Notes: a model not told the origin generated them from the sequence alone. A DNA stretch of 59,466 nt from a candidate division WOR-3 bacterium (GCA_026397595.1 JAPLUO010000197.1:1-59466), one strand, 5' to 3'. Positions 32,777 to 57,139 are shown, numbered from the stretch's first letter. Translations and numbers: made by a program.

Positions 32777-33373
32777 GTGATTGGCAGGTTTCTGTTCCGC
32801 TCGCGCGGGGTCATTGGACTGGCCGCGTTCGTCGTGGTGTTCTGGCTGGCAAGGCCGACCGTCGGGTCGTGCTCTGCCGGCCTCGCGTTCGTGCTGGCCG
32901 GGTTGGCGGTGCGGTTCTGGGCTTCGGGCTACATCGGGATTGAGGGCCGGGCGCGGGAAATCGGCGCGAGTCGGAGGATTGCGAGCGGGCCGTATCGTCT
33001 GCTGAGACATCCACTATACATCGGGAACTTCCTGTTGGTGGCGGGGATGGTTATCGCGCTGCGGCCTCCTTTGTTGCTGATGGCTGTCGTACTGGTGGGG
33101 TTTTGCGTGGAGTATGCGGTCATCGTTGTTGAGGAAGAGCGGGATTTGTCACGAGGGCGAGGTCAGAGGCTAGAAGCTAGAAGGCAGAATGCAGAAGTGC
33201 TGAGGCAAGAAGCCAAAAGCCAAGAGCCAAAAGCCAAAACTGCGAATGGCGATGGGCGAGAGGCGAATGGCGAGCAGTTCACCGTTGGACGCGCCATGTG
33301 CGAGTGGCGGACGTGGGTGGTGACTGGCGTGGCGTTCGGGCTTGCGGTTGCCAAGGCGGCAGCGAGGAGTTAG
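32777..33373 (+). CDS. isoprenylcysteine carboxyl / phospholipid methyltransferase-family membrane protein
   Basis: GPYRLLRHPLYIGNFLLVAGMVIAL motif. The C-terminal third carries a heptamer-array-encoded insert (RGQRLEARRQNAEVLRQEAKSQEPKAKTANGDGREANGE). Confidence 0.7.
   Translation: MIGRFLFRSRGVIGLAAFVVVFWLARPTVGSCSAGLAFVLAGLAVRFWASGYIGIEGRAREIGASRRIASGPYRLLRHPLYIGNFLLVAGMVIALRPPLLLMAVVLVGFCVEYAVIVVEEERDLSRGRGQRLEARRQNAEVLRQEAKSQEPKAKTANGDGREANGEQFTVGRAMCEWRTWVVTGVAFGLAVAKAAARS
33162..33273. repeat. heptamer array, ~16 units, in frame inside the ICMT-like gene
   Basis: GCTAGAA x2, GCAGAA-type x2, AGCCAAA/AGCCAAG x4 and NGGCGA-type x5, read in 7-nt steps. Confidence 0.8.
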
Positions 33374-33450
33374 GAGTTAGGTGTTAGGAGTTAGGAGACA
33401 GGAAGCAGCGGAAGACTGCTAACCGCTAACTCTTAACTGCTAACTCTCCC
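33367..33450. repeat. inverted heptamer arrays (GAGTTAG-type then CTGCTAA-type) filling a convergent intergenic spacer; possible bidirectional terminator
   Basis: Twelve units in all. The two arms are about 80% complementary over about 30 nt. The TAG stop of the ICMT-like gene (33371-33373) lies in the first unit. Confidence 0.75.
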
Positions 33451-34863
33451 TCACCGCCGGGGCAGGATTTCGAACTCGGCGGTCAGGGAGGCGGAAATGG
33501 ACGGATGGGAGACATCGCATAAATCCTTGACGCGGCTGACCAGCAGGTAGTGGCCGGGTTTCAGGTCCATGGTGTGGATTCGCTCGACCGCGACGCCGGT
33601 CCGGCCGGGACCGGTGATGGAGCGGCTCGAGACTGGCAGGATTGCTTTCTCGCGGGTTTCGCGCTCGACCAGTTCGTAGGTCGCCTGTACGTCATGGCTG
33701 CCCGCCGAGTACGTGGCGAGGTGGTAGATCTCATAGAGGACATAGAATGACTGCCCGCTTCGCACGCGGGGCACGACCAGCGGGACTGCCCGAGCCCAGT
33801 CGAGGCGGCCGAACTGCGGGCTCTGGGGCGTCGAGTCAACCAGCGAGTAGAAAAGCACGTCAGATACCGGTTGGTCGCGCCGGGAGTAGTCTATGAGGTT
33901 CAGGTTCTGAACGCGGCGGGACGCGGTCTGGCCGCCGTCGGCAATGGCCGTGACGGTTACGGTGTAGATGTCGGCAGGCAGGTTGAAAACCTCGCGGCCT
34001 ACGGCGAACTCGACCACGGTCGTGTCCGGCGGCATCGCGCAGCTTACCCATGATTCCCGGTGAGCCGGCGTGCCCTTGTCCCGGGGAGCGAGGTCAATCG
34101 CGACGTTGATGAGAGGCTGGGTCTGGGACGGGAATGCGGCCATGATCGTCCGTAGCGGAATCCCGAACGCGAGTTCGACTTCGACCGAGTCGGCGTGCTG
34201 CCCGAGCCGGCCGAGCGATACCTCTAGTCCAAGGGGCCGGGCGTCCTTTGTGATGGCGGGCGCGGAACGACCCAGGTCCACCGGTTCAAGCGACGGCATG
34301 ACAGCGCTGCGGCCGTAGCGGCTTTCGCCGACCTGTTTGTACGCGGTGCCGGTGCGGACGAAGTCGAACTGGCGACCGAGGGAGTCGTATGACCAGATTT
34401 CCGCCGGGTTGACATAAATGCGGCTGGTTTCGGTCTCTATGGCGTGCGGTTCGTATTGCTCGCGGCGGGCCGGGCCGTAGCGGATGTAGGTGCGGACCCG
34501 GTCGTCGTTCAGCAGGTCGGTCGCGCCGAAGAAGGTCCGGGCCTGAAGCGCGCGCTGGTGGTAGAAGGCAGAGGGAGAAGGGAGGAGGGAGTCGGGAGTA
34601 GGGTTCAGGCCGGGAGGAAGATTGCGCCAGAACCAGTCAAGGTATTCGGCCCGGCCGCGGGCCGTGCTCGACGATGCGTATTGCTGGGCCGCGTTCGGGG
34701 CAATCGCTGCAAGCACGAGATAGTTGAGTTTGTCGTCGTCAGAGAGCGAGTCAGCGGGGGACAACTGTCTGACCTGGCCGCAGGAGGACAGCAGGAGAAT
34801 GCAGAATGCAGATTGCAGAATGCAGATTGCAGACTGCAGACCGCGGGGTTCCGGGTTAGTCAT
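33451..34863 (-). CDS. secreted lipoprotein, possibly GWxTD-domain-like
   Basis: The N-terminus RGLQSAICILQSAFCILLLSSCG is a signal peptide plus lipobox. AEYLDWFWRNLPP...RVRTYIRYGPA is weakly reminiscent of GWxTD proteins. Confidence 0.5.
   Translation of the reverse strand: MTNPEPRGLQSAICILQSAFCILLLSSCGQVRQLSPADSLSDDDKLNYLVLAAIAPNAAQQYASSSTARGRAEYLDWFWRNLPPGLNPTPDSLLPSPSAFYHQRALQARTFFGATDLLNDDRVRTYIRYGPARREQYEPHAIETETSRIYVNPAEIWSYDSLGRQFDFVRTGTAYKQVGESRYGRSAVMPSLEPVDLGRSAPAITKDARPLGLEVSLGRLGQHADSVEVELAFGIPLRTIMAAFPSQTQPLINVAIDLAPRDKGTPAHRESWVSCAMPPDTTVVEFAVGREVFNLPADIYTVTVTAIADGGQTASRRVQNLNLIDYSRRDQPVSDVLFYSLVDSTPQSPQFGRLDWARAVPLVVPRVRSGQSFYVLYEIYHLATYSAGSHDVQATYELVERETREKAILPVSSRSITGPGRTGVAVERIHTMDLKPGHYLLVSRVKDLCDVSHPSISASLTAEFEILPRR
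34791..34849. repeat. heptamer array (GCAGAAT/GCAGATT x6) encoding the signal-peptide core
   Basis: GCAGAAT GCAGATT GCAGAAT GCAGATT GCAGACT GCAGACC at 34801-34842. Confidence 0.85.
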
Positions 34864-34881
34864 TGGGACCTGGCTATTTCC

Positions 34882-36237
34882 TTACAGCATCGGAATCTTG
34901 ACGCCCTGGGTGCGGGCGACTTCGATGGCGTCGTCGTACCCGGCGTCGGCGTGGCGGGCGATTCCGGTGCCGGGGTCGTTCAAGAGCACACGCTTCAGCC
35001 TTTCGTCCATCTCAGTCGTGCCGTCGCAGACAATGACCTGGCCCGCGTGGATAGAGTAACCGATGCCGACGCCGCCACCGTGGTGAATGGAAACCCATGA
35101 CGCGCCCGAGGCGACGTTGAGCATGGCGTTGAGCAGGGGCCAGTCGGCAATCGCGTCAGAGCCGTCTTTCATTGCTTCGGTTTCACGGTTGGGTGACGCG
35201 ACTGAGCCGGTGTCAAGGTGGTCGCGGCCGATGACTATCGGCGCGCTGATTCGCCCCTCGCGCACGGCGAGGTTGAAGGCCAACCCGGCTTTGTCGCGTT
35301 CGCCAAACCCGAGCCAGCAGATGCGGCTGGGCAGGCCCTGGAACGGTATCTCGGCGCCGGCCCTCTTTATCCAGTTGACAAGTGCGGTGTTGTTCGGGAA
35401 GAGGTCGCAGACAAGCCGGTCGGTCTCGGCGATGTCTTTCGGGTCGCCGGAGAGCGCGGCCCAGCGGAACGGCCCCTTGCCCTGGCAGAACAGCGGACGG
35501 ATGTAGGCGGGAACGAAACCGGGGTACTTCCAAGTGCCGATTGACGATTGGCGATTGGCGATTGGCGAGGTGGGGTTGCGGATTTCGGACTCGGGGAGGA
35601 AGCCGCCCTCGACTGCTTTGCCGCGCAGGTTGTTGCCGTAGTCGAACGTTACCGCGCCCATTGACTGGAGCGCAAGCATCAGGCGGACGTGTTCGGCCAT
35701 CGTGCGAAAAGACGCCTGCTTGTATGCGGCCGGGTCCTTACGGCGGAGTTCGAGCGCCTGCTCGAACGACATGCCGCTCGGCACGTAGCCGTTCAGTTCG
35801 TCATGGGCCGAGGTCTGGTCGGTGAGCAGGTCGGGCACGACTTTGCGCTCGACCAGGCGCTTAAGCAGGTCAACGATGTTGCCGCACCAGGCGAAACTGG
35901 CCGCCTGCTTATGGCTCTTCGCGTCGAGGGCCCGGTCAATAGCCTTATCAAGGTCAGGGATACTCTCGTCGAGGTAGCGGGGCTTCTTGCTGGCCAGGCG
36001 TCGGGCCACGCGGGCCGGGTCGACCTCTGCGCCGAGATAGGTCGCGCCGGCCATGGTCGCGGCCAGGGGCTGGGCGCCGCTCATGCCGCCGAGCCCGCCG
36101 GACACGACCAGCCGGCCCGCGAGGTCAGGAGTCCCGAAGTGCTTCCTGCCCGCGGCAACAAACGTCTCGTGCGTTCCCTGCAGGATACCCTGGGTGCCGA
36201 TGTATATCCACGAGCCCGCGGTCATCTGGCCGTACAT
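34882..36237 (-). CDS. hutU: urocanate hydratase, C-terminal 451 aa (gene interrupted by in-frame TAG at 36259-36261)
   Basis: [43 protein letters not shown] and [18 protein letters not shown] motifs. Confidence 0.9.
35537..35592. repeat. heptamer array (GCCGATT GACGATT GGCGATT GGCGATT ...) in frame inside hutU
   Basis: It encodes ...[16 protein letters not shown]..., an insert just before the conserved [13 protein letters not shown]. Confidence 0.8.
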
Positions 36238-36258
36238 TATGAGGCCGGCGGCTTCGAG

Positions 36259-36609
36259 CTAGTCGAAGTAGGGCTTGGTGGCCCAGTGCGGGACGAGGTT
36301 GGAGTTGGCAATCAGCACCCGCGGGGCATGGGGCCATGTGCGAAAGACCGCGACCGGCTTGCCCGACTGGACGAGCAGGGTCTCGTCGTTCTCCAGTTCC
36401 TTCAGCGTGCGGACGATGGCGTGGAAGCAGTCCCAGTTGCGGGCGGCGCGGCCGGTGCCGCCGTACACAATGAGCTGCTCGGGATTCTCGGCGACCTCGG
36501 GGTCGAGGTTGTTCATCAGCATCCGCAGGGCCGCTTCCTGGTGCCAGCCCTTGCACTTGAGGTGCGGGCCGCGCGGCGCCTTGACGGGTTGATATTGAGT
36601 CTGGTTCAT
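36259..36609 (-). CDS. hutU: urocanate hydratase, N-terminal 116 aa
   Basis: [28 protein letters not shown] and LLVQSGKPV...ANSNLVPHW motifs. It is in the same frame as 34882..36237, separated by TAG plus 7 codons. Confidence 0.9.
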
Positions 36610-36626
36610 GGCTGTTCTCCAAGGTC

Positions 36627-36655
36627 AGATTATCGGGCGACACGCTCGATGTCAA
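36627..36655 (-). promoter_or_regulatory. sigma70-like promoter (TTGACA-17-TAATCT) for hutU
   Basis: Followed by a 17-nt leader containing GGAG before ATG 36609. Confidence 0.5.
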
Positions 36656-36693
36656 TCCCGCCCGAATCCCGGAAACCGGAATACAACCGCCAC

Positions 36694-36784
36694 GTAGGAG
36701 AATAGTGAATGGAGAATTGTGAAACTCGAATCCGCCTTTCACTATTCTTAATTCACTATTTTCGCTGTGTCTTTGTGTCTTGGT
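36694..36784. repeat. intergenic palindromic heptamer array
   Basis: AATAGTG AATGGAG AATTGTG AAACTCG ... is followed by its near-complement CTTTCAC TATTCTT AATTCAC TATTTTC. The arms match at about 23 of 27 positions. Confidence 0.75.
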
Positions 36785-36823
36785 GATGAACTCCTATCCT
36801 GGTCCTCTGGTCAACCGGCGGGC

Positions 36824-36852
36824 TTGAATAGCGGAGGCCAAGCCGGTATTAT
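36824..36852 (+). promoter_or_regulatory. sigma70-like promoter (TTGAAT-17-TATTAT), leaderless relative to TTG 36859
   Basis: The -10 ends 6 nt before the start. Confidence 0.5.
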
Positions 36853-36858
36853 CAGGCG

Positions 36859-38619
36859 TTGATTCCAGTGCTGCTCCTGTGTCTGGCGGGCCAGCTTCAC
36901 ACCGGCGACACGCTTGAGGCGGTCAGGTTTGAAGGCATGCGCACGTTCAGCAGCCGAGCCCTGTCCCAACTGGTCACGGTGCGGGTCAGGCGGCCATCCA
37001 GCGAGAACCAACTCAACAACGATGCCGCGGCGCTGGAGTCGTTTTACCAAGACGAGGGATTTCACTCGGTTCGGGTCGAGAAGCAGATGACGCGGGGAAG
37101 GCGGCTGCCGGTTGTGACGTTCCACATTACCGAAGGGCCGCGCACGCGGGTGAGCGCGATTGCACTCACGGGCAACAGTACGGTCGGGACCGAGCAGTTG
37201 CTCAAGCAACTGACGGTGCGTCCGGGCCGCTTCTTTTCGCAGACCGCGCTTGACCAGAGCGTGGCGGCGCTGCGGACATACTACCTCAACTCCGGCTACC
37301 CGTTCGCGCAGGTACAAGATACGGTCACGCGCACCGACACCCTGGCCACGATTTCATTCAGTATCACCGAGGGCAGGCTGTGCCACGTGAGCGAGGTGCG
37401 GGTACGCGGTAACCGGACCGTCCGCACCAGAACCGTGCTGCGGGCCTCGGAAATCCGGCCGGGCGAGCAGTTCTCTCAGAAGCGGATGCAGGAGGCGCAA
37501 CGCCGGCTGTACGCGACCAAGCTGTTCTACCGGGTGATGTTCTTCGTCATAGCGGATAGCGGGCAGGAAACCAGGACCCGGGACCAGGGAGGACCGGACA
37601 GCGTGGCGGTCCGGTTCGACGTAGTCGAACAGGCGTACCGGGGCGTGTCCCTGGGCGCCGGGGTCGAGATTCCGCCCCGGCTGTTGGTATCGGCGGAGTG
37701 GGAGCACGACAACCTGTTCAACCGCGGCCACACGCTGGTCGTCGGCGGTGAGTTCAGCCCGACGCTTCCTTGGAGCTACCGGGTCGGGTTTGACGGTACA
37801 TACCGGGTGCCGTATCTGATTCTGACCAGGATTGACTTCCAGACTCATCCCTACTTCTCGTATGAGCGCCTGAACGACTTGATACGGCAGCGGGAGTATG
37901 GCATTGAAACCGGCATGACCCGGAGCCTTGTTCCCCAGTTCACAGTCGGCCTGACCAACCGTCTCCTGCTGCATTCCGACACTTTGTCCGGCATCACCAA
38001 TTCACTGGCGCTGAGCGGCCAGTATGATACGCGCGACGACATCTTTGACCCGGCTCAGGGCTTGTCTGTCCATGTGGTAGTCGAAGGCGCGGGCGGGCCA
38101 CTGTGGGGTGACAACGACTTCTACCGGCTGACCGGGGACGTGCGCTGGTATCAGCGGTTGGGGATAAGAGTTAGGGGTCAGGGTGCAGGGAGCGGGGATT
38201 TCGTGCTGGCAATGCGCGGCATGGCCGGGAGCGTCCGGCCCTACGGGCGCACCGTGGCAGTGCCGTACTACGAGGCGTTTACGCTCGGAGGCAGGAGTAC
38301 TCTGCGAGGGTATCCGGACCGGTCCATCGGGCCGGGCAGTTCGCCCGGGGACGAATACCGCTACGGTACGGCAGTGGTCAACGGCAACGTCGAGTTGCGC
38401 ACGCCTTACATACTGCGCTGGGTCGGGTTGGTCGGCTTCTTCGATGTCGGCGACGTGGGGTACGACTTCCGGATGCGAGTCTATGAATACGGCGCCGGGG
38501 CAGGCATACGGGTGCGGACCCCAATCGGGCCGGTCAGGCTGGACTGGGGTAAACGCCTGCGGAACCCGCCATCCGGGGACAAGGGCCGTTTCTACCTGGG
38601 GCTGCTCCATGCTTTCTAG
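36859..38619 (+). CDS. tamA: Omp85-family outer-membrane protein (TamA-like; BamA-like not excluded)
   Basis: 586 aa with a POTRA-like N-region and GGRSTLRGY. The barrel ends in ...YLGLLHAF. It lies immediately upstream of tamB, and its size fits the 3-POTRA TamA. Confidence 0.75.
   Translation: MIPVLLLCLAGQLHTGDTLEAVRFEGMRTFSSRALSQLVTVRVRRPSSENQLNNDAAALESFYQDEGFHSVRVEKQMTRGRRLPVVTFHITEGPRTRVSAIALTGNSTVGTEQLLKQLTVRPGRFFSQTALDQSVAALRTYYLNSGYPFAQVQDTVTRTDTLATISFSITEGRLCHVSEVRVRGNRTVRTRTVLRASEIRPGEQFSQKRMQEAQRRLYATKLFYRVMFFVIADSGQETRTRDQGGPDSVAVRFDVVEQAYRGVSLGAGVEIPPRLLVSAEWEHDNLFNRGHTLVVGGEFSPTLPWSYRVGFDGTYRVPYLILTRIDFQTHPYFSYERLNDLIRQREYGIETGMTRSLVPQFTVGLTNRLLLHSDTLSGITNSLALSGQYDTRDDIFDPAQGLSVHVVVEGAGGPLWGDNDFYRLTGDVRWYQRLGIRVRGQGAGSGDFVLAMRGMAGSVRPYGRTVAVPYYEAFTLGGRSTLRGYPDRSIGPGSSPGDEYRYGTAVVNGNVELRTPYILRWVGLVGFFDVGDVGYDFRMRVYEYGAGAGIRVRTPIGPVRLDWGKRLRNPPSGDKGRFYLGLLHAF
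38162..38198. repeat. short heptamer array in frame inside tamA
   Basis: ATAAGAG TTAGGGG TCAGGGT GCAGGGA GCGGGGA, encoding GIRVRGQGAGSGD. Confidence 0.6.
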
Positions 38620-40894
38620 CATTCGGCGGGTTCTGCTCGGAATCGCGATTGCGCTGGTCGCGCTGATTCAGGTCGTACTGGTACTGGCAGCACTGATACT
38701 GCTGGTGCCGTCGGTCGGCAGGTACGCGCTCAGCCAGGCGCTGACGCGGTTCGGGCCGCGGGTGGGGTTCGAGGTGAGCTTCGGACGGATTGAGGGAACC
38801 ATCACGCGGAGCATTACCCTTGCCGACCTGACGTTGAAGCTCGGGCCGGATTCCCTCAAGGTGAGGAAGCTGACGCTGACATACGATCCGTGGACATCAA
38901 TCACGCATCGGACCTTCTCTGCCTCGTTGGCAAGTGCGGTCGAACCGAGGTTCTTCATCAGCTCGGTGCGTCCCGTTTCAGGCCGAGGCGGGACCGGCCG
39001 AAGTCAGTATCCGCCGATTCGGATTGGGCAACTCCGTCTGTCCGGCGGGAGCGCGTTCATCGATACGGCGATGCGCCTCGATTCGGTTGACCTCATTCTG
39101 AATCTCGTCTCAACGCCGGAGCAGATGCAGGTGCAGTTGTCGGAAGTGAAGGCCCGCATGTACCAGGAACACATCTCGCTAGAGAACCTGAGCGGTGGGG
39201 CACGACTTACCCGGGACTCGCTGGTAATAACCGAACTTGTGGCGATGACCAAGAGCTCTTCGTTGCGCGCCGGGTTGAAGATGGCATTCCAGCCGAATAC
39301 TATCGTTGCCCAGCTTGAGAGCCTTTCCATTAGCCTGCAGGAGTTGGCCTCAGTAGCCCCTGTCGGACAGCGCACGCCGGTTCCGGGCCGACTGAGACTG
39401 AAGGGCACCGCGAAGCTGGAGAAGAACCAGGGCTCGGGAAACCTGCAGTTTGCGGCGGAAGGTCTCGCATGGCGTACCATCGAACTGCCGACAATCAGCG
39501 GCGAGCTGGTGCTGCAAGACTCGGTGGTACAAGTGACTATGGCCGGCGCAGATTCGGGACTGGGCAGCGCGGATGTGACCGGCAGGCTGGACCTGCGCAA
39601 GCTCGACTTCTCAGGCTCGGCGCAGTTGGTCGGCATCCGCGTGCGGCGACTCAGTTCGGGGTTGCCGGACGTGATGGTTGACGCCGACATCGAGGCCTCG
39701 GGCCGTGGGCTCGACTCGATTGCGGCGACCGTCAATGCGCGAATACCCGCCCTTGAAATCAACACGCTGAAGGTGGTCGGTTCCTACCGCCAGGCTGGCG
39801 GGCGGGTTGCGATTGAACAGCTTGAGCTGAGCGGGCCGGTCGGTGTCGTCTCCGGCCATGGCACCTGGCAGGGCAGCAGGTTCCAGGCTGAGGTACGGAT
39901 GGACACTTTCGACCTGGGGCTGCTTGCGAAGCTCGAATCGTTGCCGGTGCAAGGACGGGTTTCCGGCAACCTGAGCCTGGCCGGGACCGCGGAGACGCTG
40001 GATGTTGTGTCTGAACTGTCAGTCACCGACCTGAGCGTTGCCGGCGTCAATGCAGCGACAGCGCATGTTGGTCTTGCGGCCGCGATGGGGCGGGAGCTGT
40101 CCGGACAGGTGCGGGTCGGGGTTGCCAGGGCAAGCTACGGCGGATTCACGGTTGATTCCGTGCAGTTGACCTGGCAGGAGCAGCAGTTCGGGCTCGGGGT
40201 CTGGCAGCCCGGGGTCCAGGTCTCAGCCGAGGGCGCAGCCCGGCTGGCGCGAGACAGCGTTGTCATTGACTTCGCCACGCTCCGAATTGGTGCCAAGCCC
40301 GAAACGCTGACCATGCACGACGCGCTTCACCTCCGGCTGCGACAAAACTCACTCGACGTCCAACTCGCCGCACCGGATATCGCCGGCGGCGACGTGCGGG
40401 CGACGCTGGCCAGCGCGGCCGGGAAACCGGCCCGCCTCGACGTGGCCGTGAGTCGGCTGGACCTTGCCAGAGTCAAGGCACTGCTGGGCCTCGGGTTTGA
40501 TATGTCCGGCACAGTCAGTCTTGGCGTAACCGGCAGCGACACGTTCCTTCTGACCCTGGATGCCGACCGGCTGAGCATACCGTCTGCGGACGTCAATCTG
40601 AGCCGGGTCCAGGGCGCGGTCAGTGTCACCCGGACGCGCGCGGCCATTGATCATCTCTGGTTGGTGCACATGGACAGCAGCGCGGTGCCGGAGACAAGCG
40701 TGGTCGCCGGTTCAGTCGAATACCAGACCGAGGCCGGCTTCAAACTGGGTGCCGCTGACTTACGGGTGAGGCTGCGCAATCCCGGAGTCTGGGTGGTGGC
40801 TTTCCTGAAGCCGATCATGGAGTTGCGGCAGGGCACCATCTTCGGAGACCTGGCGCTGAAGGGTGGTCTGACTCGGCCGGTGTTCACCGGGTGA
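38609..40894 (+). CDS. tamB: TamB-like translocation/assembly module protein, N-terminal part
   Basis: ATG 38609 overlaps the tamA end. It has an N-terminal TM anchor (VLLGIAIALVALIQVVLVLAALILLV) and a long repetitive beta-rich region. Confidence 0.7.
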   Translation: MLSSIRRVLLGIAIALVALIQVVLVLAALILLVPSVGRYALSQALTRFGPRVGFEVSFGRIEGTITRSITLADLTLKLGPDSLKVRKLTLTYDPWTSITHRTFSASLASAVEPRFFISSVRPVSGRGGTGRSQYPPIRIGQLRLSGGSAFIDTAMRLDSVDLILNLVSTPEQMQVQLSEVKARMYQEHISLENLSGGARLTRDSLVITELVAMTKSSSLRAGLKMAFQPNTIVAQLESLSISLQELASVAPVGQRTPVPGRLRLKGTAKLEKNQGSGNLQFAAEGLAWRTIELPTISGELVLQDSVVQVTMAGADSGLGSADVTGRLDLRKLDFSGSAQLVGIRVRRLSSGLPDVMVDADIEASGRGLDSIAATVNARIPALEINTLKVVGSYRQAGGRVAIEQLELSGPVGVVSGHGTWQGSRFQAEVRMDTFDLGLLAKLESLPVQGRVSGNLSLAGTAETLDVVSELSVTDLSVAGVNAATAHVGLAAAMGRELSGQVRVGVARASYGGFTVDSVQLTWQEQQFGLGVWQPGVQVSAEGAARLARDSVVIDFATLRIGAKPETLTMHDALHLRLRQNSLDVQLAAPDIAGGDVRATLASAAGKPARLDVAVSRLDLARVKALLGLGFDMSGTVSLGVTGSDTFLLTLDADRLSIPSADVNLSRVQGAVSVTRTRAAIDHLWLVHMDSSAVPETSVVAGSVEYQTEAGFKLGAADLRVRLRNPGVWVVAFLKPIMELRQGTIFGDLALKGGLTRPVFTG

Positions 40895-41970
40895 ACGCCG
40901 AACTGGTATTCGACCGCAGCCGTATCAGTATTGAGAAGCTGACCGGCAGGTCTGACCACGGGAACACGCTGGTCACGGGTTTCGTCGACATCGGCGAGAA
41001 GTGGCAGGTTGACTCGCTCCGGTTCCACGGCGATTTCAGCGGTACCACAATCAACCCACAGCCGGAAATCTATGGCATAATCGGGGGCAGCCTTGACCTT
41101 GACTGGGCCATGGGCCGGCCGTACTCGATTTCCGGAACGGTTGACATCGAGGAAGCGCTGGTGGCATTCGCGTTCGGTCAGTCGGCCGGCGTCGCCCGGG
41201 GGCCCGATACCACATTCGTCTTCGATGTCCGGGTGAGGGCCGAGCGCGACATCTGGCTGCGCAGCCAGCGAGCGGGCATCGATTTCGGCGGGGCGGACAT
41301 TGAGTTCGGCGGGGACATGACCATCCGCAAGACCATGACCGACATGCTCTACACCGGCGAACTGGTCTCGCGGCAGGGCACGGTCTACTACCTCGACCAG
41401 GCCCTGCGTGTTACCAGCGGTTCGGTGAAGTTCGAGAACATCAGCACCGTGAACCCGGACCTTGATATCATCGCCGAGTTGCCAATCCGGGCGGGTCCGG
41501 GTGATACGAAGGTGCCGGACAAGATCGTCCTGACCCTGACCGGCACCCTGGAGAAGCCGGCTTTCGGGTTCACGTCCGAGCCGCCCATCTGGGACGAGAC
41601 GGCGATTGCCTCGTACCTCAGTCTGAACGTGACCCCGGGCCAGCTTGACCAGCAAGGCGCGGTCACCAAGCTGCTGTCCCAACGCCTGCTCAACTACTTT
41701 CAGTTGCAGGTTTCCAAGCGTGCGCGCGGGTTCGTCAGTCTCGACTACCTCGAGTTTGAGAGCGGGCTGCTCGGGGACCGGGAGACCAAGGTCACGGTAG
41801 GCAAGTACGTGGGCAGGAACCTGTACGTGACGTACACGCAGAACTTCACCGGCGACCTCAACCCGGCATTCCGGGTCGAATACTACGTTAACCGTAAGAA
41901 CGAAATCCTCGCCGAGGGCTCGGCCAGCGGCCCGTTCTCGCTTCGATACCAGTTCAAACTCCGGTACTGA
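40891..41970 (+). CDS. tamB: TamB-like protein, C-terminal part (DUF490-type end)
   Basis: GTGA overlap with the previous ORF. The end ...VTVGKYVGRNLYVTYTQNF...FSLRYQFKLRY is typical of TamB C-termini. Confidence 0.7.
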   Translation: MNAELVFDRSRISIEKLTGRSDHGNTLVTGFVDIGEKWQVDSLRFHGDFSGTTINPQPEIYGIIGGSLDLDWAMGRPYSISGTVDIEEALVAFAFGQSAGVARGPDTTFVFDVRVRAERDIWLRSQRAGIDFGGADIEFGGDMTIRKTMTDMLYTGELVSRQGTVYYLDQALRVTSGSVKFENISTVNPDLDIIAELPIRAGPGDTKVPDKIVLTLTGTLEKPAFGFTSEPPIWDETAIASYLSLNVTPGQLDQQGAVTKLLSQRLLNYFQLQVSKRARGFVSLDYLEFESGLLGDRETKVTVGKYVGRNLYVTYTQNFTGDLNPAFRVEYYVNRKNEILAEGSASGPFSLRYQFKLRY

Positions 41971-44100: not shown

Positions 44101-44216
44101 AGGACGAAGCCAGAAGCTAGATGCTAGAAGTCAGAAGTCCGGGCAGTCCTAACTGCTAACTTACTAACTGCTAACTTACTAACCGCTACCTTACTAACTC
44201 GCGGCGAAGCCGCGTC
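44101..44216. repeat. intergenic heptamer/15-mer array filling the priA / 44217 convergent spacer
   Basis: CAGAAGC TAGATGC TAGAAGT CAGAAGT, then (CTAACTGCTAACTTA) x3. It is flanked by the short inverted termini GTAGAGGACG / CGTCCTAC, which contain both stop codons. Confidence 0.8.
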
Positions 44217-45011
44217 CTACTTGCTGCCCGCCGGTCGTGTCAGGTTCTCCCTGATTGTCTTCGCTTCTTTCGGATACGCGGTCGAGTCGAGCAGGGCCGC
44301 GGCCTCGCGGTAGGCGTCTCCGGCGGAGGCCGTGTCCTTCAAGACTTCGAGCGCCGCGCCCGCGTTGTTGGCGGCTTGCGCCCTGAGCAGGCGGGCTGAA
44401 TCCGGAAGGAACCGGCGCGCGCGCGAGTAGTACGCGACCGCGCTGTCCTGATACCCTCGGCTCTGGAATACCCAGCCAATGGAGAACGCAAGCCGGGGTG
44501 CTGTCCCGGTCGGGCTAGAGTCTTCCCCCATGGACCTTCGGAAGGATTGGACCGAGCGGTCGAGGTTGTCGGCGTCGTACCAGCAGAAAGCCATATAGGC
44601 GCGTATTGCAGCCGACTCGGGCCGAGTCGCGCGATTCAGCATGTTGTTGAGAGCCGTCAGCGCGTCGTACCAGCGGCGCTGGGCGTAGAGCGAGTCAGGG
44701 CCGACGAACCGCGCGCTCATCTCCTCGGGAAACAGGGTCCGGACGCCGCTGTCGAGCTTCACGTCGCCGAGCATCCGGGTTATCGAAATCAGGTCGGGCT
44801 TGGCGTTCGTGAGCAGCGGAATCGGTGCGGGCTCGGATGGCGGTCGGGAAAGAGCTCCCACGACCAGGAAGATCAGGACGACCACGACCACCCCGACGAT
44901 TCCCCACTGCACAACGCTGTTCGACAGCCGAAACTTCTTCGCCGGACGCTTCTGGCGGATATTCTTTATCTTAGCCACGCAGGATATTAGCCGACTCGCG
45001 CCGGCTGTCAA
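44217..45011 (-). CDS. membrane-anchored TPR-like protein (hypothetical)
   Basis: An N-terminal TM (WGIVGVVVVVLIFLVVGAL) and helical repeat-like Ala/Tyr/Arg-rich segments. No specific family recognised. Confidence 0.5.
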   Translation of the reverse strand: MTAGASRLISCVAKIKNIRQKRPAKKFRLSNSVVQWGIVGVVVVVLIFLVVGALSRPPSEPAPIPLLTNAKPDLISITRMLGDVKLDSGVRTLFPEEMSARFVGPDSLYAQRRWYDALTALNNMLNRATRPESAAIRAYMAFCWYDADNLDRSVQSFRRSMGEDSSPTGTAPRLAFSIGWVFQSRGYQDSAVAYYSRARRFLPDSARLLRAQAANNAGAALEVLKDTASAGDAYREAAALLDSTAYPKEAKTIRENLTRPAGSK

Positions 45012-48080: not shown

Positions 48081-48085
48081 CTCGC

Positions 48086-50479: not shown

Positions 50480-50507
50480 TTGACACGCCGCCCGCGAGCG
50501 CTAGAAT
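50480..50507 (+). promoter_or_regulatory. sigma70-like promoter (TTGACA-16-TAGAAT), leaderless relative to ATG 50514
   Basis: The -10 ends 6 nt before the ATG. Confidence 0.55.
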
Positions 50508-50513
50508 CGGGGC

Positions 50514-51575: not shown

Positions 51576-51614
51576 CCATCACTGCCGGCTGCCCGCCATC
51601 GGTGCCAGCGGGGG

Positions 51615-51920
51615 GTGCAAGTCGGGACGTGGATGCTCGCGACACTCGCGCGGGCGGCACACAAGCCGTTCTACGTGGTGGCGCCGTCCTCGACCTTTGA
51701 CCTCGCGACCCGGACCGGACGGCAGATTGCGGTCGAGGAAAGGAATGGGGAAGAGGTTAGGGCATTCGCCGGCTGCCGCGCCGCGCCGGCCCCGACCGTC
51801 GTATTCAACCCGGCCTTTGACGTTACTCCGGCCCGCCTCATCACCGGCTTCATCACCGACCGCGGCATCCTCACGTCGCCGTTCCGCCAGAGCATCGCTC
51901 GGCTGTTGGCACGCGCCTAG
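51615..51920 (+). pseudogene. mtnA: duplicated 3' fragment of mtnA
   Basis: TRMLATLARAA.KPFYVVAPSSTFD...FNPAFDVTPARLI.GFITDRGIL is shared with mtnA. There are 29 mismatches and no gaps in about 270 nt aligned by eye (49920-50189 vs 51621-51890). Confidence 0.8.
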
Positions 51921-51930
51921 CGGCGGGGCA

Positions 51931-51969
51931 ACAGAAAAGACGCGGCCCGGGCAGGAATGCCCGGGCCGT
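51931..51969 (-). terminator. intrinsic (possibly bidirectional) terminator
   Basis: An 11-12 bp perfect GC stem, GCGGCCCGGGCA-ggaa-TGCCCGGGCCG. It is flanked by an A-run on the plus strand, which is a T-run for the minus-strand cyclophilin operon. Confidence 0.7.
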
Positions 51970-51985
51970 GATGATTGTCGTCAGG

Positions 51986-52693: not shown

Positions 52694-52708
52694 CGAAACG
52701 GACCTCCT

Positions 52709-54745
52709 TTAGTTGCTTGCATGTCCTTGCCGGGATGAACCGTGCGTCACGACGAACTTGTGCCGGGAGGCACCGGTCGCGGTCTCAAGTTCCGCCAGAT
52801 AGACACCGGGTGCGAGCCCGGCTGCCTCGGTGTCCACCGTATACTGCGTCGGTTTGCCTCCGGTCGGGTAACATTTTACCGTCCGACCCGCAATGTCAAT
52901 GATTTTCAAGTCTCGGCTGTCGGCCGGAAGCGTGACGTGCAGTACGCGGTAGGCCGGATTGGGCCATACCGATGTCGATCCGGAGGGCGGAAGACGAAAG
53001 GCGAAAGGCGAAACGGCGCCGGCAGGGGGTGAGCGGTACGACACGGCATCAAGGTCGAGGCCGGCTCTTGGGTCAGAGGGTGAGCCGGTGCTGTCACAGA
53101 CGATGCGCAGGTAGCAGGCGGAGTCGAGGCCGGCCGAGCCCAGGTCGAATGAGGCGGTGCCGCTAGCGTGGCCGATCCTGTTCCACAAACCGGTCCAGTC
53201 GTTGGCGGCGTACAGCCAGTAGCCGTCCGCGACGCTATCACCGTCAAAGACCGTAATGTCGTTGCCCGGCAGATTCCTCATTGTCCTATCGCGGCCCGCA
53301 CTGAGGCAGACATCGCCTTTCCGGCCCAGCGAGAAGTAGCGGCCGTCGGGCGCGCCCAGTGCGTAGATGGAGGTCGTGGGCATGACCTTGGTCGAGTCCC
53401 CGTTGTTCAGCCAGACCATTTCTTCGATGTAGACTTGTCCTGACGTGTCGGGCGCGAGGTCGAAATCAGCAGTCGCCCTGCCTCCGGCCGGCACGACCAC
53501 ACCGGCGACCGTCTTGGGCAGAAAACCCTGCGCGTGGGCGGTCAGCGTGTAGGTGCCGGGCTGAAGCAGGTGGTCGTAGTCGCCGAGTGCATGGTCGGTG
53601 TAGCAGTCCCAGCGCACCGGGCTGTCAACCGATATGCGGGCGAAGAGCGGCGCGCCGGTCAACGAGTCGCGGACCACGCCGCTTGCTCCCTGGCGGCAGG
53701 CGCGAATCATGCCGAGCAGTGCCCGGCGGTTGGCAACGCAAATCGAGTCTATCTGGGCCTGCTCAGATTGATGCGGCCTCTGTGTCTCAATCGTGTAGGC
53801 GAAGTTGCCGAAGAGGCCGAATCCGGCATCCTGGCACGATCCGTCCACCTCGTACCAGCCATAGCCGTTGATGGGCTCAAGCAGTGTCGTGCCCGAGCCG
53901 TAGGTCGAGTCCGCGTACTGTTGGGCCAGAGCCATGATAGAGCCGGAGTCGGGCGGGTCGGCCGGGTGGTTGTCCCAAAGGTAGTTGACATACGACGAGG
54001 CCGAGTGGTACGCGAATTCCATGCAGATGTTGTTGTCCATGCTGTGCTGCCGGATGAAGCGCGTCTCCGGCTGCGAGAATGGACTCGGGCTCCCGCCCAT
54101 TCCGCTCCAGCGATAGCCGTAGTCGCGGTTCAGGTCAACGCCTTTGGCGTTGGAACGGTCACTCGCGATGAAGCCGTCCACGTTGACAATCGGGATGACC
54201 CAGAGCTCGGTTGAGTCCACCAGGTTGTGGATTGAGGTGCTGGTGTCGTAGCTTGCCAGTACGTATTGCAGGAACGAGAGCGTGATTTCGGTCGCAATCT
54301 TCTCATCGCCGTGATGCGGGCCGAGGACCCGGAACTCGGGTTCGGCTTCTTCAGTGAGCGAGTTGTCGGTCACCCGCATCGCCAGAATCAGGCTGTCGTT
54401 GGCACTCCGGCCGATGGTGTCGAGCCGGCAGATGAGCGGGTAGGCCTGGACCAGGCTGACCATGGTGCTGCAGACTTGCGCGTAGGTCCGGTAGTCGAAC
54501 TGCGCCGAGTCGGTCCATGCCTGGTAGTCCGGGATGGTGACTATCGGTGAATAGCCGAGGGCGCGGAGCCGGACAAGGTCGGCGTCAGTGACAAGCACGC
54601 GGGCGGAGCCGTCGGCGACGCTGATGATGGTCAGGTCGTGCGGCAACTGATATACGGCAGCGTGGCTGGGGAGCTGGACTTCGGCCACGCGCCGGGCCTG
54701 CCCGGGCGCGCCGAGAAGCAGCAGGGCGGCGACGATGAGATTCAC
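52709..54745 (-). CDS. M14-family zinc carboxypeptidase with T9SS C-terminal sorting domain
   Basis: GPHHGDEKIATE (HxxE) and the M14 core. The C-terminal ~80 aa (VWPNPAYRVLHV...IIDIAGRTV...LAPGVYLAEL) resembles a type-A Por sorting domain. Confidence 0.75.
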   Translation of the reverse strand: MNLIVAALLLLGAPGQARRVAEVQLPSHAAVYQLPHDLTIISVADGSARVLVTDADLVRLRALGYSPIVTIPDYQAWTDSAQFDYRTYAQVCSTMVSLVQAYPLICRLDTIGRSANDSLILAMRVTDNSLTEEAEPEFRVLGPHHGDEKIATEITLSFLQYVLASYDTSTSIHNLVDSTELWVIPIVNVDGFIASDRSNAKGVDLNRDYGYRWSGMGGSPSPFSQPETRFIRQHSMDNNICMEFAYHSASSYVNYLWDNHPADPPDSGSIMALAQQYADSTYGSGTTLLEPINGYGWYEVDGSCQDAGFGLFGNFAYTIETQRPHQSEQAQIDSICVANRRALLGMIRACRQGASGVVRDSLTGAPLFARISVDSPVRWDCYTDHALGDYDHLLQPGTYTLTAHAQGFLPKTVAGVVVPAGGRATADFDLAPDTSGQVYIEEMVWLNNGDSTKVMPTTSIYALGAPDGRYFSLGRKGDVCLSAGRDRTMRNLPGNDITVFDGDSVADGYWLYAANDWTGLWNRIGHASGTASFDLGSAGLDSACYLRIVCDSTGSPSDPRAGLDLDAVSYRSPPAGAVSPFAFRLPPSGSTSVWPNPAYRVLHVTLPADSRDLKIIDIAGRTVKCYPTGGKPTQYTVDTEAAGLAPGVYLAELETATGASRHKFVVTHGSSRQGHASN
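52986..53020. repeat. short heptamer array in frame in the peptidase
   Basis: GACGAAA GGCGAAA GGCGAAA CGGCGCC, encoding ...SPFAFRLPP... on the minus strand just before the sorting domain. Confidence 0.6.
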
Positions 54746-54751
54746 GAGCGA

Positions 54752-57139
54752 CTAGTGTAGCAGGACCAGCTTGCTGGTCAAACTCCCTTGCGGCGTGGCG
54801 GAGCGAAGGAAGTAGGCGCCGGGAGGCAAGTCGGAAGTGGAAAGGGGAAATGGCGAAGTCGAGACCGTGAAGGACCGGACGAAGCGGCCGGAGGCATCGT
54901 ACAGGGACAACGATGAACGATGAGCGATGAACGATGAACCGGAGATGCGGACGGTCGCGCGGCCGTGGCAGGGGTTGGGGGATACGAAGAGGGAAGCGGG
55001 AGGAGGGAGGAGGGAGGAGTGGGGCTCGGCCAGTCCGACCCCGGGTGCGCGGAACAGAATGCTCGTGGAATCGGCCGGCACGTGCTTGAGCGGGTTGGCG
55101 TCGTACACGTATTGCTGGTACCAGTTCCAACTGCCGTCATCGCCCTGGATTCCGACGGTGCTGCTCGTGGCGTCGGCAGTAACATCGAGGTAGTTGAACC
55201 GGATATTGCCACTGTGTTCGAGGATGACTTGGAACGTGAGCAGGCCGGTGTCCGGCTGCGCTCGCGCAGCGCCGACCCATGTGTAGACTGCCTGTTCGCT
55301 CGTGAGGTTCTCGTAGACTTGTCCGGTGTCGCGGAGAGAGATGTCGTCCCAGAACGGCGCGATGATGTCGGTGATGTCCTCGAAGGGAAGCGGGAAATTG
55401 AGGCCGGCAATGCTGTTCGAGGTCTGGATGTAGCCGTTGGTGCATACGTGGACGCGGTCGGTCGAGTCCCCGTAGAAACGAAACTTGAACGGCAGGTGAC
55501 GGCGGGAAGTGCCCTCGTCCGGGTTCGGGTTCCAGTCGTCAATAACGGTTCCCCCGGCCGTGTCGAACCACGAGAACGCGACCGAGTCCGGTTCCTGTGA
55601 TGATTCGTAGACGTAACCGAACCCGTCCGGGTCGCTGCCCGTGGTCGTGCGCGAGCGCTGGCGGCTGGTGTCGTTGCCCGGGTTTTCGTCACCGGTGAGA
55701 CTGACAAAGGCAGTGGCGTGGAACACGGTCCGCTCCGAGGGCAGGAAGACGCCGAAGTCAACCTGTTGACTCGAGTCCGGCGCGAGTTGGAGCACGGTGT
55801 CCCGGTCGAATACCGGAGCCTGGGTGGCGGAGTCGAGAATCGTAATACGGGCAGTCGGGGTTTCGCCGGCAGCGCCGAAGTTGCGAATCAGCACCAGAAC
55901 CGGGCAGGGGTCGTCCGGGACCAACCTGCCCGAGGGCGAGACGACGCCGGCTACGCCGACATCATGCGCGAAACTCGTCATGTCGAGGTACTCAGTGGTC
56001 TGCGAGTACGGTGCGGCGCCGGGATAGCCGCCGGGGACGTAGATGCGACCGGCCGGGTCGGTGCCGGTGCCGAAGACGCTGGAGACCGGGTGCGGCTTGG
56101 CGGCGCGTTCGTGCCACAGGCCGGTGGCGGCCCCGACCGACCAGACGTCGGAGAGGGCGGAGAAGGATGAAGGCTGAAGGATGAAGGATGAAGACGGAAG
56201 GCCCAAGGCGGGATGCTGTATGCCGTATGCTGTATGCCGTATGCTCTCCGCGGCTGTGCCGTCCAGCGTGAGCCCGCCGATGACGTACAGTTCGTTGTTG
56301 ACCACGCCGCAGGCGGCGCGGCAGCGGCGGGGTCCGGGCAGAGTGTCGAGTTCGGACCAGTAGATAACCGTGGGACTTACGGGGTCGATGAGGCCCATCC
56401 ACGCCTTGTTGGTCGGACCCGAATCGGTCCAGCCGGTCGCGACCAGAATCGTGTCGCCCACGATGCCGCAGGCCATGGCGCCGAGCGGCTCAGGCAAGGG
56501 CGTTGCCGGGTACCAAGTGCTGGTCGCCGCGTCGAAGAACTTGACCGTATCGGTCGGCGGCATTGAGGGATGCCAACTGCCACCGCCCAGCGTGAAAATC
56601 AGGCTGTCGCGCCAGACCACGGTGCCGAAGTCGTACAGGCCTTCCGGCATGTTCGGGCCGACCGTCCACGTATCCGCGGCCGGGTCGTAGACTTCGACGT
56701 CGGCCAGCCCGGTGCCGAACGTCCGGCACCCGCCGAGCACATAGACCTGTCCCTTCACAGTGCACGCCTGTCCCAGCCCACGGCGCTGGGACATGGCGGC
56801 GCGCTGGCGCCACGAGTTTGGCTGCGGCGAATACTCGATGCACAGTCGTTCCATCGTGTCGGAAGGCGAACGCTGGCCGCCGATTGCATAGAGCCGAGGG
56901 CCGGAATCGGTCGAGGCGAACGCGGTCATGTGGAAGGCACGGGGACCGGGCAGCGGCGCGACTTCAAACCACTCGTTGCCGTCCGTCACCGAGCCCGCCA
57001 AGACGGTGCAATAGACCAGGACCAACGCCATCGCCAGGAAAATGGTGCGGCCCGAGTCGAGTCCGCTACATCCGCGCCGGTCCGTATTCTGCATCACAAG
57101 GTCGTGACTGAGGTTACCACTTGGTGTTGTAAGAGTCAA
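54752..57139 (-). CDS. Kelch-repeat protein with T9SS C-terminal sorting domain
   Basis: Kelch-like blades (RLYAIGG, VYVLGG, ELYVIGG) and the C-terminus LFVSPNPCHGRATVRI...LYDASGRFV...PPGAYFL. The likely true start is ATG 57094 (MQNTDRR..., signal peptide). Confidence 0.75.
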   Translation of the reverse strand: MTLTTPSGNLSHDLVMQNTDRRGCSGLDSGRTIFLAMALVLVYCTVLAGSVTDGNEWFEVAPLPGPRAFHMTAFASTDSGPRLYAIGGQRSPSDTMERLCIEYSPQPNSWRQRAAMSQRRGLGQACTVKGQVYVLGGCRTFGTGLADVEVYDPAADTWTVGPNMPEGLYDFGTVVWRDSLIFTLGGGSWHPSMPPTDTVKFFDAATSTWYPATPLPEPLGAMACGIVGDTILVATGWTDSGPTNKAWMGLIDPVSPTVIYWSELDTLPGPRRCRAACGVVNNELYVIGGLTLDGTAAESIRHTAYGIQHPALGLPSSSFILQPSSFSALSDVWSVGAATGLWHERAAKPHPVSSVFGTGTDPAGRIYVPGGYPGAAPYSQTTEYLDMTSFAHDVGVAGVVSPSGRLVPDDPCPVLVLIRNFGAAGETPTARITILDSATQAPVFDRDTVLQLAPDSSQQVDFGVFLPSERTVFHATAFVSLTGDENPGNDTSRQRSRTTTGSDPDGFGYVYESSQEPDSVAFSWFDTAGGTVIDDWNPNPDEGTSRRHLPFKFRFYGDSTDRVHVCTNGYIQTSNSIAGLNFPLPFEDITDIIAPFWDDISLRDTGQVYENLTSEQAVYTWVGAARAQPDTGLLTFQVILEHSGNIRFNYLDVTADATSSTVGIQGDDGSWNWYQQYVYDANPLKHVPADSTSILFRAPGVGLAEPHSSLLPPPASLFVSPNPCHGRATVRISGSSFIAHRSSLSLYDASGRFVRSFTVSTSPFPLSTSDLPPGAYFLRSATPQGSLTSKLVLLH
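54827..55025. repeat. three heptamer arrays in frame within the Kelch-protein sorting-domain region
   Basis: GAAGTGG AAAGGGG AAATGGC GAAGTCG; ATGAACG ATGAGCG ATGAACG ATGAACC; GGAGGGA x3. Confidence 0.75.
56151..56248. repeat. heptamer array, 14 units, in frame in the Kelch domain
   Basis: GGATGAA GGCTGAA GGATGAA GGATGAA ... TGCTGTA TGCCGTA TGCTGTA TGCCGTA, encoding HTAYGIQHPALGLPSSSFILQPSSFSAL on the minus strand. Confidence 0.85.

Follow-up and report, generated by a model that had tools for sequence, protein, structure and literature searches.

The DNA analysed here, a stretch of 59,466 nt from a bacterium of candidate division WOR-3 (hereafter the window), carries many tandem arrays of 7-nt units, and a preliminary description of it had proposed that these arrays obey a stop-codon rule, with stop-free orientations inside genes and stop-containing units only between genes, where they supply the stops. 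We found the orientation rule to be a residue of purifying selection and no property of the elements. The best explanation of the data, to which we give a probability of about three in four, is a selection filter acting on two related repeat classes. The first would comprise direct tandem arrays of 7-nt (sometimes 8-nt) units, heptameric simple sequence repeats (SSRs) like the short tandemly repeated repetitive (STRR) sequences of cyanobacteria; the second would comprise dispersed palindromes resembling repetitive extragenic palindromic (REP) elements, with arms made of heptamer arrays and ends that are often GTAG / GGAGNNTAG. A lineage-specific excess of arrays, their turnover in place, an in-frame constraint, conserved gene ends and dispersed palindromes with stops in their arms were all established.

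Period-7 arrays and the stop-codon rule

Arrays were detected with Tandem Repeats Finder and a lag-autocorrelation scan. The lag scan of the window gave 13 strict arrays at lag 7, whereas lags 4, 5, 6, 8, 10, 11 and 13 gave none; under relaxed criteria, 23 lag-7 regions amounting to 1171 bp were recovered, and neighbouring lags not divisible by 3 yielded 2-5. In 300 kb of contigs from the clade, 172 lag-7 arrays were counted against 0-16 at lags 4, 5, 6, 8, 10 and 11. Units of 7 nt thus stand head to tail in at least three copies and far above other periods, as in heptameric SSRs. Dispersal and sharing by related genomes were also observed, five related loci and 51 metagenome stretches being rich in arrays, and the density in the clade is roughly one array per 2-3 kb, genic and intergenic. 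Within the window, 11 of the 13 strict arrays are genic. No Rfam family was matched by the window, and a scan of it for tRNA and tmRNA genes found none.

Seven syntenic loci of relatives were retrieved, with L007 as an ingroup and L009 and L010 as outgroups; the nearest relatives of the urocanase fragment, 94-77% identical, are labelled candidate division WOR-3. Many period-7 and some period-8 arrays were present in the ingroup loci, against none in L009 and three weak ones in L010, and the arrays are therefore lineage-specific. Array length and unit differ between relatives, and it is in arrays that most of the large indels separating the window from L001 (88% nucleotide identity) are located. 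That the arrays might be an artefact of assembly or sequencing has practically no chance of being right: the in-frame stop of hutU and the TamB frameshift, both described below, could mean that the consensus of the window is imperfect, but the same arrays occur at the same sites and in frame in independent ENA, JGI, NCBI and Logan assemblies, by which an artefact is ruled out.

Since 7 is coprime with 3, three or more units show every phase, and an open reading frame (ORF) therefore cannot hold a stop-bearing unit in the sense orientation. The stop rule is nearly a logical necessity; it comes close to a tautology and carries very little information. All coordinates, translations and stop codons given earlier were verified, including the TAG of the PEMT/ICMT gene (33371-33373), the TAG of priA (44098-44100) and the stop of the gene convergent with priA (44217-44219). 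The placement of GAAGGAT on the plus strand only in a minus-strand Kelch gene, and of its reverse complement CCTTCAT in the plus-strand priA, was likewise confirmed, as was the stop-free reading of both. GAAGGAT (4.6 copies, 56162-56195 on the plus strand) lies in the minus-strand ORF 54752-57139, which encodes a Kelch protein of the type IX secretion system (T9SS), and reads ...PSSSFILQPSSFSA... / ...SSSFILQPSSFSA..., and CCTTCAT (42421-42465) lies in the priA ORF (41974-44100) and reads DLHLSSFIFPPSFS, LHLSSFIFPPSF. Genic arrays with a stop on one strand only, which alone are informative, number three in the window (at 42423, 54908 and 56162). About 70% of the window's array units hold no stop trinucleotide on either strand, and tandem repetition would leave 71% of the window's own 7-mers without a stop on either strand.

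A cross-phylum control was performed by scanning the genomes of 185,579 species for (CTTCTGM)x3, which matched at least 120 stretches. Among the matches listed, the hosts were cyanobacteria, Acidobacteriota, Verrucomicrobiota, Bacteroidota, Chloroflexota, Nitrospirota and others, and about 40% of the CTTCTGM arrays, in many phyla, were within long ORFs. Among these same listed matches, CTTCTGA, which has TGA forward and no stop in reverse, occurred in long ORFs 0 times in sense and 21 times in antisense, whereas its one-base variant CTTCTGC, stop-free both ways, occurred 9 times in sense and 10 times in antisense. The orientation bias is thus fully explained by stop content. The earlier suggestion that selection filters insertions is upheld by this pair of units, but as a statement it is nearly tautological and already in print for TAACTGA heptamers (PMC4679880).

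The tabulation of arrays by unit, strand and stop content that had been proposed was carried out on 369 kb of non-redundant clade sequence, with strict arrays, and with ORFs of coding-type GC content at third codon positions taken as genic. It contained 180 strict arrays, 81 of them genic. When a hairpin family built on GTGAAT (see below) was excluded, the consensus unit had a stop in sense in 6 of 66 genic arrays and in antisense in 15 of 66. The six sense cases were all short, with at most two intact stop-bearing units that avoid the frame. Stop-bearing units thus do occur in genes, but in no more than two intact copies. The TAG-bearing unit GCTAGAA has two intact copies (33169-33189) within the PEMT ORF, units of this kind dodged by the frame were also seen in L002, L006 and L134, and GTTAG-like units at 38163-38183 lie out of frame within BamA.

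Intergenic arrays are not especially laden with stops: of 52 in the 369 kb, 7 had stops on both strands, 17 on one strand and 28 on neither, and the per-strand stop frequency was 30% in intergenic arrays against 23% in genic antisense (p = 0.38). Stop-bearing arrays had also been said to occur in convergent spacers only, and this is contradicted by the stop-bearing inverted array at 36693-36765, which lies in the divergent hutU-BamA spacer.

As a separate observation, the first 31.8 kb of the window contain no strict period-7 array, against 13 in the other 27.7 kb; under relaxed criteria, a single weak stretch at 19691-19718 was seen there. The genes of this part (1-31800) include polA, a polysaccharide-synthesis cluster at about 6-18 kb, gpsA and apgM, and it may be more constrained or newly acquired.

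In-frame arrays within genes and their turnover

The arrays and array-like stretches located inside genes of the window are as follows.

33154-33277, plus strand: insertion in the PEMT/ICMT gene (32777-33373), with GCTAGAA at 33169-33189, AAGCCAA at 33208-33240 and GCGAATG at 33242-33273
34571-34599, minus strand: GGGAGGA-type array in the lipoprotein ORF (33451-34863), read as ...PTPDSLLPSPS...
34794-34844, minus strand: AGAATGC, 6.4 copies, in the lipoprotein ORF, coding for the hydrophobic core of the signal peptide (LQSAICILQSAFCILLLSSC)
35535-35570, minus strand: CGATTGG, 4.4 copies (sense CCAATCG), in urocanase (hutU), an 8-residue in-frame loop expansion in the Rossmann-like domain
38161-38201, plus strand: weak period-7 stretch in BamA (ORF 36859-38619), GGGATAA GAGTTAG GGGTCAG GGTGCAG...
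42415-42465, plus strand: CCTTCAT array in PriA, a variable linker with 4-5 residues more than the outgroup
42919-43121, plus strand: degenerate NNNNAAG array with an inverted CTTNNNN arm in PriA, Tandem Repeats Finder periods 21 and 69
52988-53016, minus strand: GGCGAAA array in the M14 carboxypeptidase (52709-54745), a linker ahead of the T9SS sorting domain
54822-55024, minus strand: C-terminal trio in the Kelch protein, degenerate at 54822-54858, AACGATG at 54908-54940 and GGGAGGA at 54991-55024
56152-56253, minus strand: blade-loop arrays in the Kelch protein, GAAGGAT at 56162-56195 and ATGCTGT at 56213-56245, an in-frame insertion of about 30 residues

The clearest picture of turnover was obtained from urocanase. 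In the outgroups the loop is the array-free TPGRSGSW. The window, L002 and L006 carry at this site the 7-mer (C/T)CAATCG in four copies, and L001, L004 and L007 carry 8-mer units (CCACTGGA, TCCCTCGA and CCCCTCGA), all of them in frame; the 3' boundary CCACT is common to the 7-mer and 8-mer versions. Several discrete alleles were found inside clusters of 90% identity, at a near-fixed length of 20-24 residues. Whole units turn over in concert here, with the reading frame kept.

This constancy bears on the idea that the genic arrays are contingency loci, in which a change of one unit (+/-7 nt) would switch a gene by frameshift, i.e. phase variation. The unit length is indeed not a multiple of 3, and several of the hosts are secreted or surface proteins (the T9SS Kelch protein, the M14 peptidase and the lipoprotein). 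However, the arrays lie mid-gene or C-terminally in the housekeeping enzymes urocanase, PriA and PEMT, more than 60 urocanase sequences kept the loop at 20-24 residues with no one-unit variants or frameshifts, and the two disrupted genes of the window, hutU (TAG) and TamB (deletion), are broken at sites other than arrays. Contingency loci are known by repeats in the 5' part or promoter and by frame-shifting variants, and here the arrays were mostly mid-gene or 3'. We consider phase variation very improbable.

In the PEMT/ICMT protein, three adjacent direct arrays form a hypervariable internal insertion, in frame, whose size ranges among relatives from about 45 residues to more than 150. In the alignment it is bounded upstream by EE(E/K)xL and downstream by a conserved C-terminal helix, FxxxRAxCEWRTWVVTG; the outgroups have the helix and lack the insertion. 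The Pfam PEMT/ICMT domain ends near residue 124, and from this end the arrays could be taken for a C-terminal extension, a reading that was rejected as the conserved helix aligns downstream of them. Further 12/24-bp repeats lie immediately upstream of this gene. In the lipoprotein, the array at 34571 adds 7-10 residues relative to L002, L009 and L010, and the core of the signal peptide is built from other arrays in the orthologues, e.g. six copies of TGCGGCT in L007.

The longer PriA array (42919-43121) is in frame in the helicase region and adds about 75 residues, with 0-75 found among relatives; its fold is weakly better than that of shuffles (z = -1.9). The Kelch trio lies within and just before the T9SS C-terminal sorting domain. 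The BamA stretch is degenerate, and its TAA and TAG were found to be out of frame when checked against ORF 36859-38619.

Several further features of these genes and their surroundings were recorded. The PriA of this WOR-3 group as a whole (window 42466-42500; L001-L009) is without the canonical Walker A lysine, the window reading HTGSGSQED, and Pfam matches only its 3'-DNA-binding and C-terminal domains, with the DEHD box retained. In hutU, away from the array, an in-frame TAG (36259-36261, minus strand) splits the gene; it replaces a Glu (FDELEAAGL) present in 25 of the 25 closest orthologues, and indicates either a pseudogene or a consensus error. In TamB (38609-41970), about 59-61 nt that L001 has are deleted at about 40884, between the short direct repeats CCGGTG and CCGGGTG, and the resulting frameshift splits the gene into 38609-40894 and 40891-41970. 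Near the urocanase locus, the outgroup L010 encodes a 23S_rRNA_IVP/bAvd-like protein (1869-2234); bAvd-like proteins are the accessory type of diversity-generating retroelements.

Repeats of other periods were present as well. The stretches 31883-32236 and 32523-32696 include an ORF that consists almost wholly of a 24-bp tandem repeat (31970-32174, 8.5 copies, ELGEELTQ) and the 12/24-bp repeats upstream of the PEMT gene, and two genes at 30213-31548 and 58697-59466 contain mutually similar tandem repeats of 120 bp (40 residues, TPR-like). The DNA polymerase I of the window (3671-6145) has 5'-3' exonuclease and polymerase domains and gave no Pfam match for the 3'-5' proofreading exonuclease domain, a make-up that could be relevant to repeat instability.

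Gene ends and dispersed palindromes

The arrays and array-like elements located between genes of the window are as follows.

33361-33447, no strand assigned: hairpin in the spacer between the convergent PEMT and lipoprotein genes, GAGTTAG in 5 copies (33361-33403), a loop and the inverted arm CTAACNC in 4 copies (CTAACTC, 33417-33447); termini GGAGTTAG...CTAACTCTCC
44097-44220, no strand assigned: composite spacer between the convergent priA and TPR genes, GAAGCNA/GAAGTCA at 44106-44140, CTAACTG/CTAACTTA at 44149-44199 and a small GTAG palindrome
36651-36809, no strand assigned: insertion of 159 nt between the divergent promoters of hutU and BamA, core at 36693-36765

It had been suggested that arrays truncate genes or redefine their ends, and comparison of C-termini with those of orthologues refuted this for the genes named, PriA and PEMT. 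The window PriA ends in ...VDVDPLETV, and every relative ends in the same or nearly the same residues, also those that are array-free at this point (L006, L007 and L009); the Pfam PriA_C profile matches the window protein from end to end. The stop of PEMT shifts by no more than 1 residue among ingroup relatives, whether or not they carry the hairpin. Taken over PriA, PEMT, TPR and lipoprotein, C-termini are kept within +/-1-3 residues, with or without arrays.

Stops are nevertheless donated by the palindromic elements. The TAG of PEMT/ICMT lies within the first GAGTTAG unit of the 33361-33447 hairpin, which folds with a minimum free energy of -55.3 kcal/mol (z = -3.16 against shuffles). At the corresponding junction in L007, L009 and L010, PEMT and lipoprotein have no spacer at all and their stops overlap (CTAG/TTAG), so the array-bearing spacer grew between two pre-existing stops. 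In L180, too, the first TTAG of such a GAGTTAG hairpin contains the TAG of a gene, one that is unrelated. The 707-residue ORF of L180 was considered as a candidate PriA and rejected, BLASTP showing it to be unrelated; the site is therefore an independent one. A second, paralogous convergent pair, consisting of a lipoprotein C-terminal fragment and a PEMT, is present in L004 (14127-15541), with a GAGTTAG/CTCCTAAC hairpin of its own between the stops.

At the priA-TPR junction, the two TAG codons (44098-44100 and 44217-44219) are both within GTAG/CTAC. The short inverted termini noted here earlier, GTAGAGGACG/CGTCCTAC at 44097/44213, fold no better than shuffles (z = 0.02) and were rejected as a structural element on that ground. 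The right end is instead a small GTAG-tagged palindrome (44198-44220, reverse complement GTAGGACGCGGCTTCGCCGCGAG), in which GTAG and 2 nt are followed by a 6-bp stem with a 3-nt loop. Among the relatives, L004 has the same right end, L001 a palindrome of the GTGAAT family, L006 and L009 are array-free and L007 has overlapping stops, so that this spacer, like that at the PEMT-lipoprotein junction, grew between stops already in place.

This GTGAAT family is represented in the window by the hutU-BamA insertion. Its core (36693-36765) is a GTAG-tagged palindrome with the arm GGAGAAT AGTGAAT GGAGAAT TGTGAAA, the loop CTCGAATCCGCC and the inverse arm (z = -3.54 for the fold); the PriA-TPR spacer of L001, a different locus, matches it in the opposite orientation with 82% similarity over a range that includes the loop. 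The 159-nt insertion, which has GTCAA on both sides, is absent in L001, L006 and L007, whereas L002 and L004 carry other inserts at this point. When metagenomes were scanned for exact matches to the 24-nt core of the loop, 51 stretches were recovered, or 59 copies with the window and L001 counted; one metagenome, which also holds an L001-type genome, had 19 copies on 14 contigs.

The family was found in two forms, one of about 160 nt (subfamily 1) with longer outer arms and one of about 85 nt (subfamily 2) that reads GGAGAATAGTGAAT...loop...ATTCACTATTCTCC. The arms of both are heptamer arrays NGTGAAT/NGAGAAT, and many copies are preceded by GTAG or GTGG. Subfamily 1 starts with GTAG-, GTGG-, GCGG- or GTCG-GAGAATAG (the window copy CACGTAGGAGAATAG), and subfamily 2 has no clear tag. 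The termini of the GAGTTAG hairpin at 33361-33447 resemble those of the family. RNAalifold on 43 copies recovered the inner stem only, the arms being blurred by register shifts of the heptamers. In L163 (504-1741), L144 and L170 (119-344), the palindromes are clustered by two or three at regular spacing, which recalls REP arrays of the BIME type (bacterial interspersed mosaic elements).

In the GTGAAT family, each of the three frames meets stops in the arms. Of 48 flanking ORFs, 28 terminate within an arm, most often at the outermost TAG of GGAGAATAG and often on both sides, and in most copies gene ends are located in the arms or beside them. The claim that the elements supply stops is right for the palindromic, inverted-array elements and supported for these only; protein ends change by just one to three residues.

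Two other accounts of these arrays were weighed at this point. The first holds that small mobile elements have inserted as arrays of every kind, the genic direct ones included, and that gene ends are truncated or redefined by them. Dispersal of the palindromic family is clear, the GTCAA-flanked insertion at 36651 is missing in the closest relative, unit types recur at unrelated loci, and the PriA-TPR spacer contains unrelated modules in close relatives. However, the constancy of the PriA, PEMT, TPR and lipoprotein C-termini speaks against it, the direct arrays have neither conserved flanks nor target duplications, and no consistent target duplication was found around the 85-nt palindromes. One genic site, that of urocanase, furthermore changes its unit and its period from 7 to 8 and yet keeps the CCACT boundary, which indicates evolution in place. 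We regard this account as improbable.

The second account, also unlikely in our judgement though less so, sees the stop-bearing intergenic arrays as adaptive modules that provide all-frame stops and bidirectional hairpin terminators between formerly overlapping convergent genes. It would fit the stable fold of the 33361-33447 hairpin and its place at a junction where L007, L009 and L010 have overlapping stops and no terminator, the all-frame stops and ORF ends in the GTGAAT arms, and a modest excess between genes of units with stops on both strands. On the other hand, more than half of the intergenic arrays are stop-free on both strands, the same palindrome family stands between divergent promoters, where a terminator would be senseless, the 44080-44240 module has no significant fold, and close relatives manage without such modules at the same junctions. 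A consensus scan for terminators found no hairpin followed by a T-tract at any array of the window.

Relation to known repeats and origin of the arrays

A literature search on tandem repeats in WOR-3 returned nothing relevant, and the closest precedents come from other phyla. The heptamer TAACTGA forms direct repeats in Beggiatoaceae, Cyanobacteria and Bacteroidetes (MacGregor 2015, PMC4679880). Its forward orientation has stops in all three frames and overlaps ORF ends by about two units or fewer, and its reverse orientation is translatable and occurs within ORFs, mostly at the peripheries of proteins (PMC4679880). The window arrays resemble these repeats in being tandem heptamers with nearly the same core, CTAACTG/CTAACTC/CTAACCG being equivalent to TAACTGC and similar units, but the exact TAACTGA was not found: the window has TAACTGC, TAACTTAC, TAACCGC and TAACTCT, at most 6/7 identical. 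Nor are the arrays concentrated close to start codons, whereas TAACTGA repeats lie predominantly a few nucleotides upstream of them; both window arrays of this type are between convergent stops. They differ further in their WOR-3 host, in the coexistence of many units with none dominant, and in being genic about as commonly as intergenic.

Heptameric SSRs have also been described with the units GGGAATC in Xanthomonas and GGGGA(C/T)T in Nostoc, under-represented in coding regions (Rehm 2015, PMC4692102), and over-representation of heptameric SSRs was noted by Mrazek 2007, as cited in PMC4692102. Like these and the STRR sequences of Calothrix and Nostoc, the present arrays typically have about 4 units, are scattered over the genome and vary in copy number from one relative to another, and some of their units are G-rich (GGGGACN, TGGGGTT). 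Unlike the Xanthomonas and Nostoc heptamers, they lie in ORFs in 81 of 180 cases, including a loop of the urocanase catalytic domain, and 8-mers occur. The hosts of those repeats are free-living bacteria with large or high-GC genomes.

For the palindromes, the closest likeness is to GTAG REPs, whose termini provide TAG stops and which occur between ORFs that converge or run in one direction, and at times within genes (Di Nocera 2013, PMC3733652), and to REPINs (Bertels and Rainey 2011). The GTGAAT family is likewise dispersed, multi-copy, often preceded by GTAG or GTGG and donates TAG; it is found mostly downstream of genes, between convergent or unidirectional ORFs, with clusters in some cases, and palindromic repeats are again met inside replication and repair genes, here priA. 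As in REPs, its members are imperfect palindromes able to form a stem-loop, dispersed in high copy number and extragenic, mainly downstream of ORFs. REPs are 20-40 bp with stems of 6-13 bp, whereas the present elements measure about 85 nt or, in the composite form, about 160 nt, with arms of about 30 nt built of heptamers, and the phyla listed for GTAG REPs do not include that of their host. Rickettsia palindromic elements (RPE; Ogata 2000), selfish DNA in frame in protein genes, are mentioned in PMC3733652. The genic arrays are like RPE in adding repeat-derived peptides in frame at surface loops of conserved proteins with the ORF left intact, but RPE are defined, dispersed elements of 100-150 bp, whereas the genic inserts are mostly direct heptamer arrays whose units are site-specific and change fast.

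The selection filter favoured here would operate as follows. Slipped-strand mispairing and intra-array conversion would generate the arrays and drive their turnover in place, with whole units changing in concert and the total length staying in frame, and palindromic elements would spread to new loci as copies. Within genes, the survivors are in-frame arrays whose sense strand is free of TAA, TAG and TGA, and only in loops, linkers and signal peptides. Tight convergent junctions, with ancestrally overlapping CTAG/TTAG, would accept only modules with stops on both strands; the outermost TAG of the module would become the stop of the gene, and the end of the protein would not be materially altered.

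Several observations weigh against this explanation. Intergenic arrays show a modest enrichment of units with stops on both strands (7/52 against 4.5% expected, p = 0.008), a value that is weakened by stop-to-stop ORF calling, which absorbs stop-free arrays into "genes", and by the non-independence of the cases. The enrichment was considered as a sign of function and rejected in view of the ORF-calling bias and of several cases being two arms of one hairpin. As regards slippage, no within-population variation of +/-1 unit was observed, and the length of the coding urocanase loop is notably constant. The urocanase alleles are distributed incongruently with overall sequence similarity, which points to recombination or repeated replacement. 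For the palindromes, no RAYT (the IS200/IS605-type tyrosine transposase associated with REPs) was found, although no systematic search for it was made; 92 small ORFs close to copies, screened crudely for HUH/Y motifs, gave no hit.

The recurrence of units is a further difficulty. Four pairs of identical-class units were found at unrelated loci of the window (33169/44106, 34571/54991, 42423/56162 and 33420/44149) against 0.19 expected, a number matched in 0 of 2000 simulations, and the CTTCTG[AC] arrays of relatives also occur, among the matches listed, in many distant phyla. Simple local slippage does not explain the recurrence, which points to copying between loci or strong sequence preferences. 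There is a slender chance that in this WOR-3 lineage 7-8-nt arrays are written and rewritten by a specific process and not by generic slippage, from a small set of units shared with distant phyla, and that this process makes both hypervariable peptide cassettes in enzymes that are otherwise highly conserved, as in the urocanase loop alleles, and mobile REP-like palindromes with heptamer arrays as arms.

That stop codons constrain heptamer arrays and that palindromic repeats donate TAG stops has already been published. What looks new is the host phylum, the dense in-frame arrays in core enzymes, the turnover between 7- and 8-nt units at one site, and palindromes with arms of about 30 nt built of heptamer arrays. 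Heptameric repeats and REP-like palindromes are hereby extended to candidate division WOR-3, where unusually dense and fast-evolving in-frame arrays lie within urocanase, PriA, PEMT and signal peptides. CTTCTGA and CTTCTGC provide a clean natural control in which coding constraints alone set the orientation of arrays. For annotation the results carry a warning: stop-free arrays inflate ORFs, and array-rich genomes yield variable gene ends and apparent insertions. If a specific writing process were indeed at work, simple-sequence arrays would be the raw material for new palindromic mobile elements and for new gene ends.

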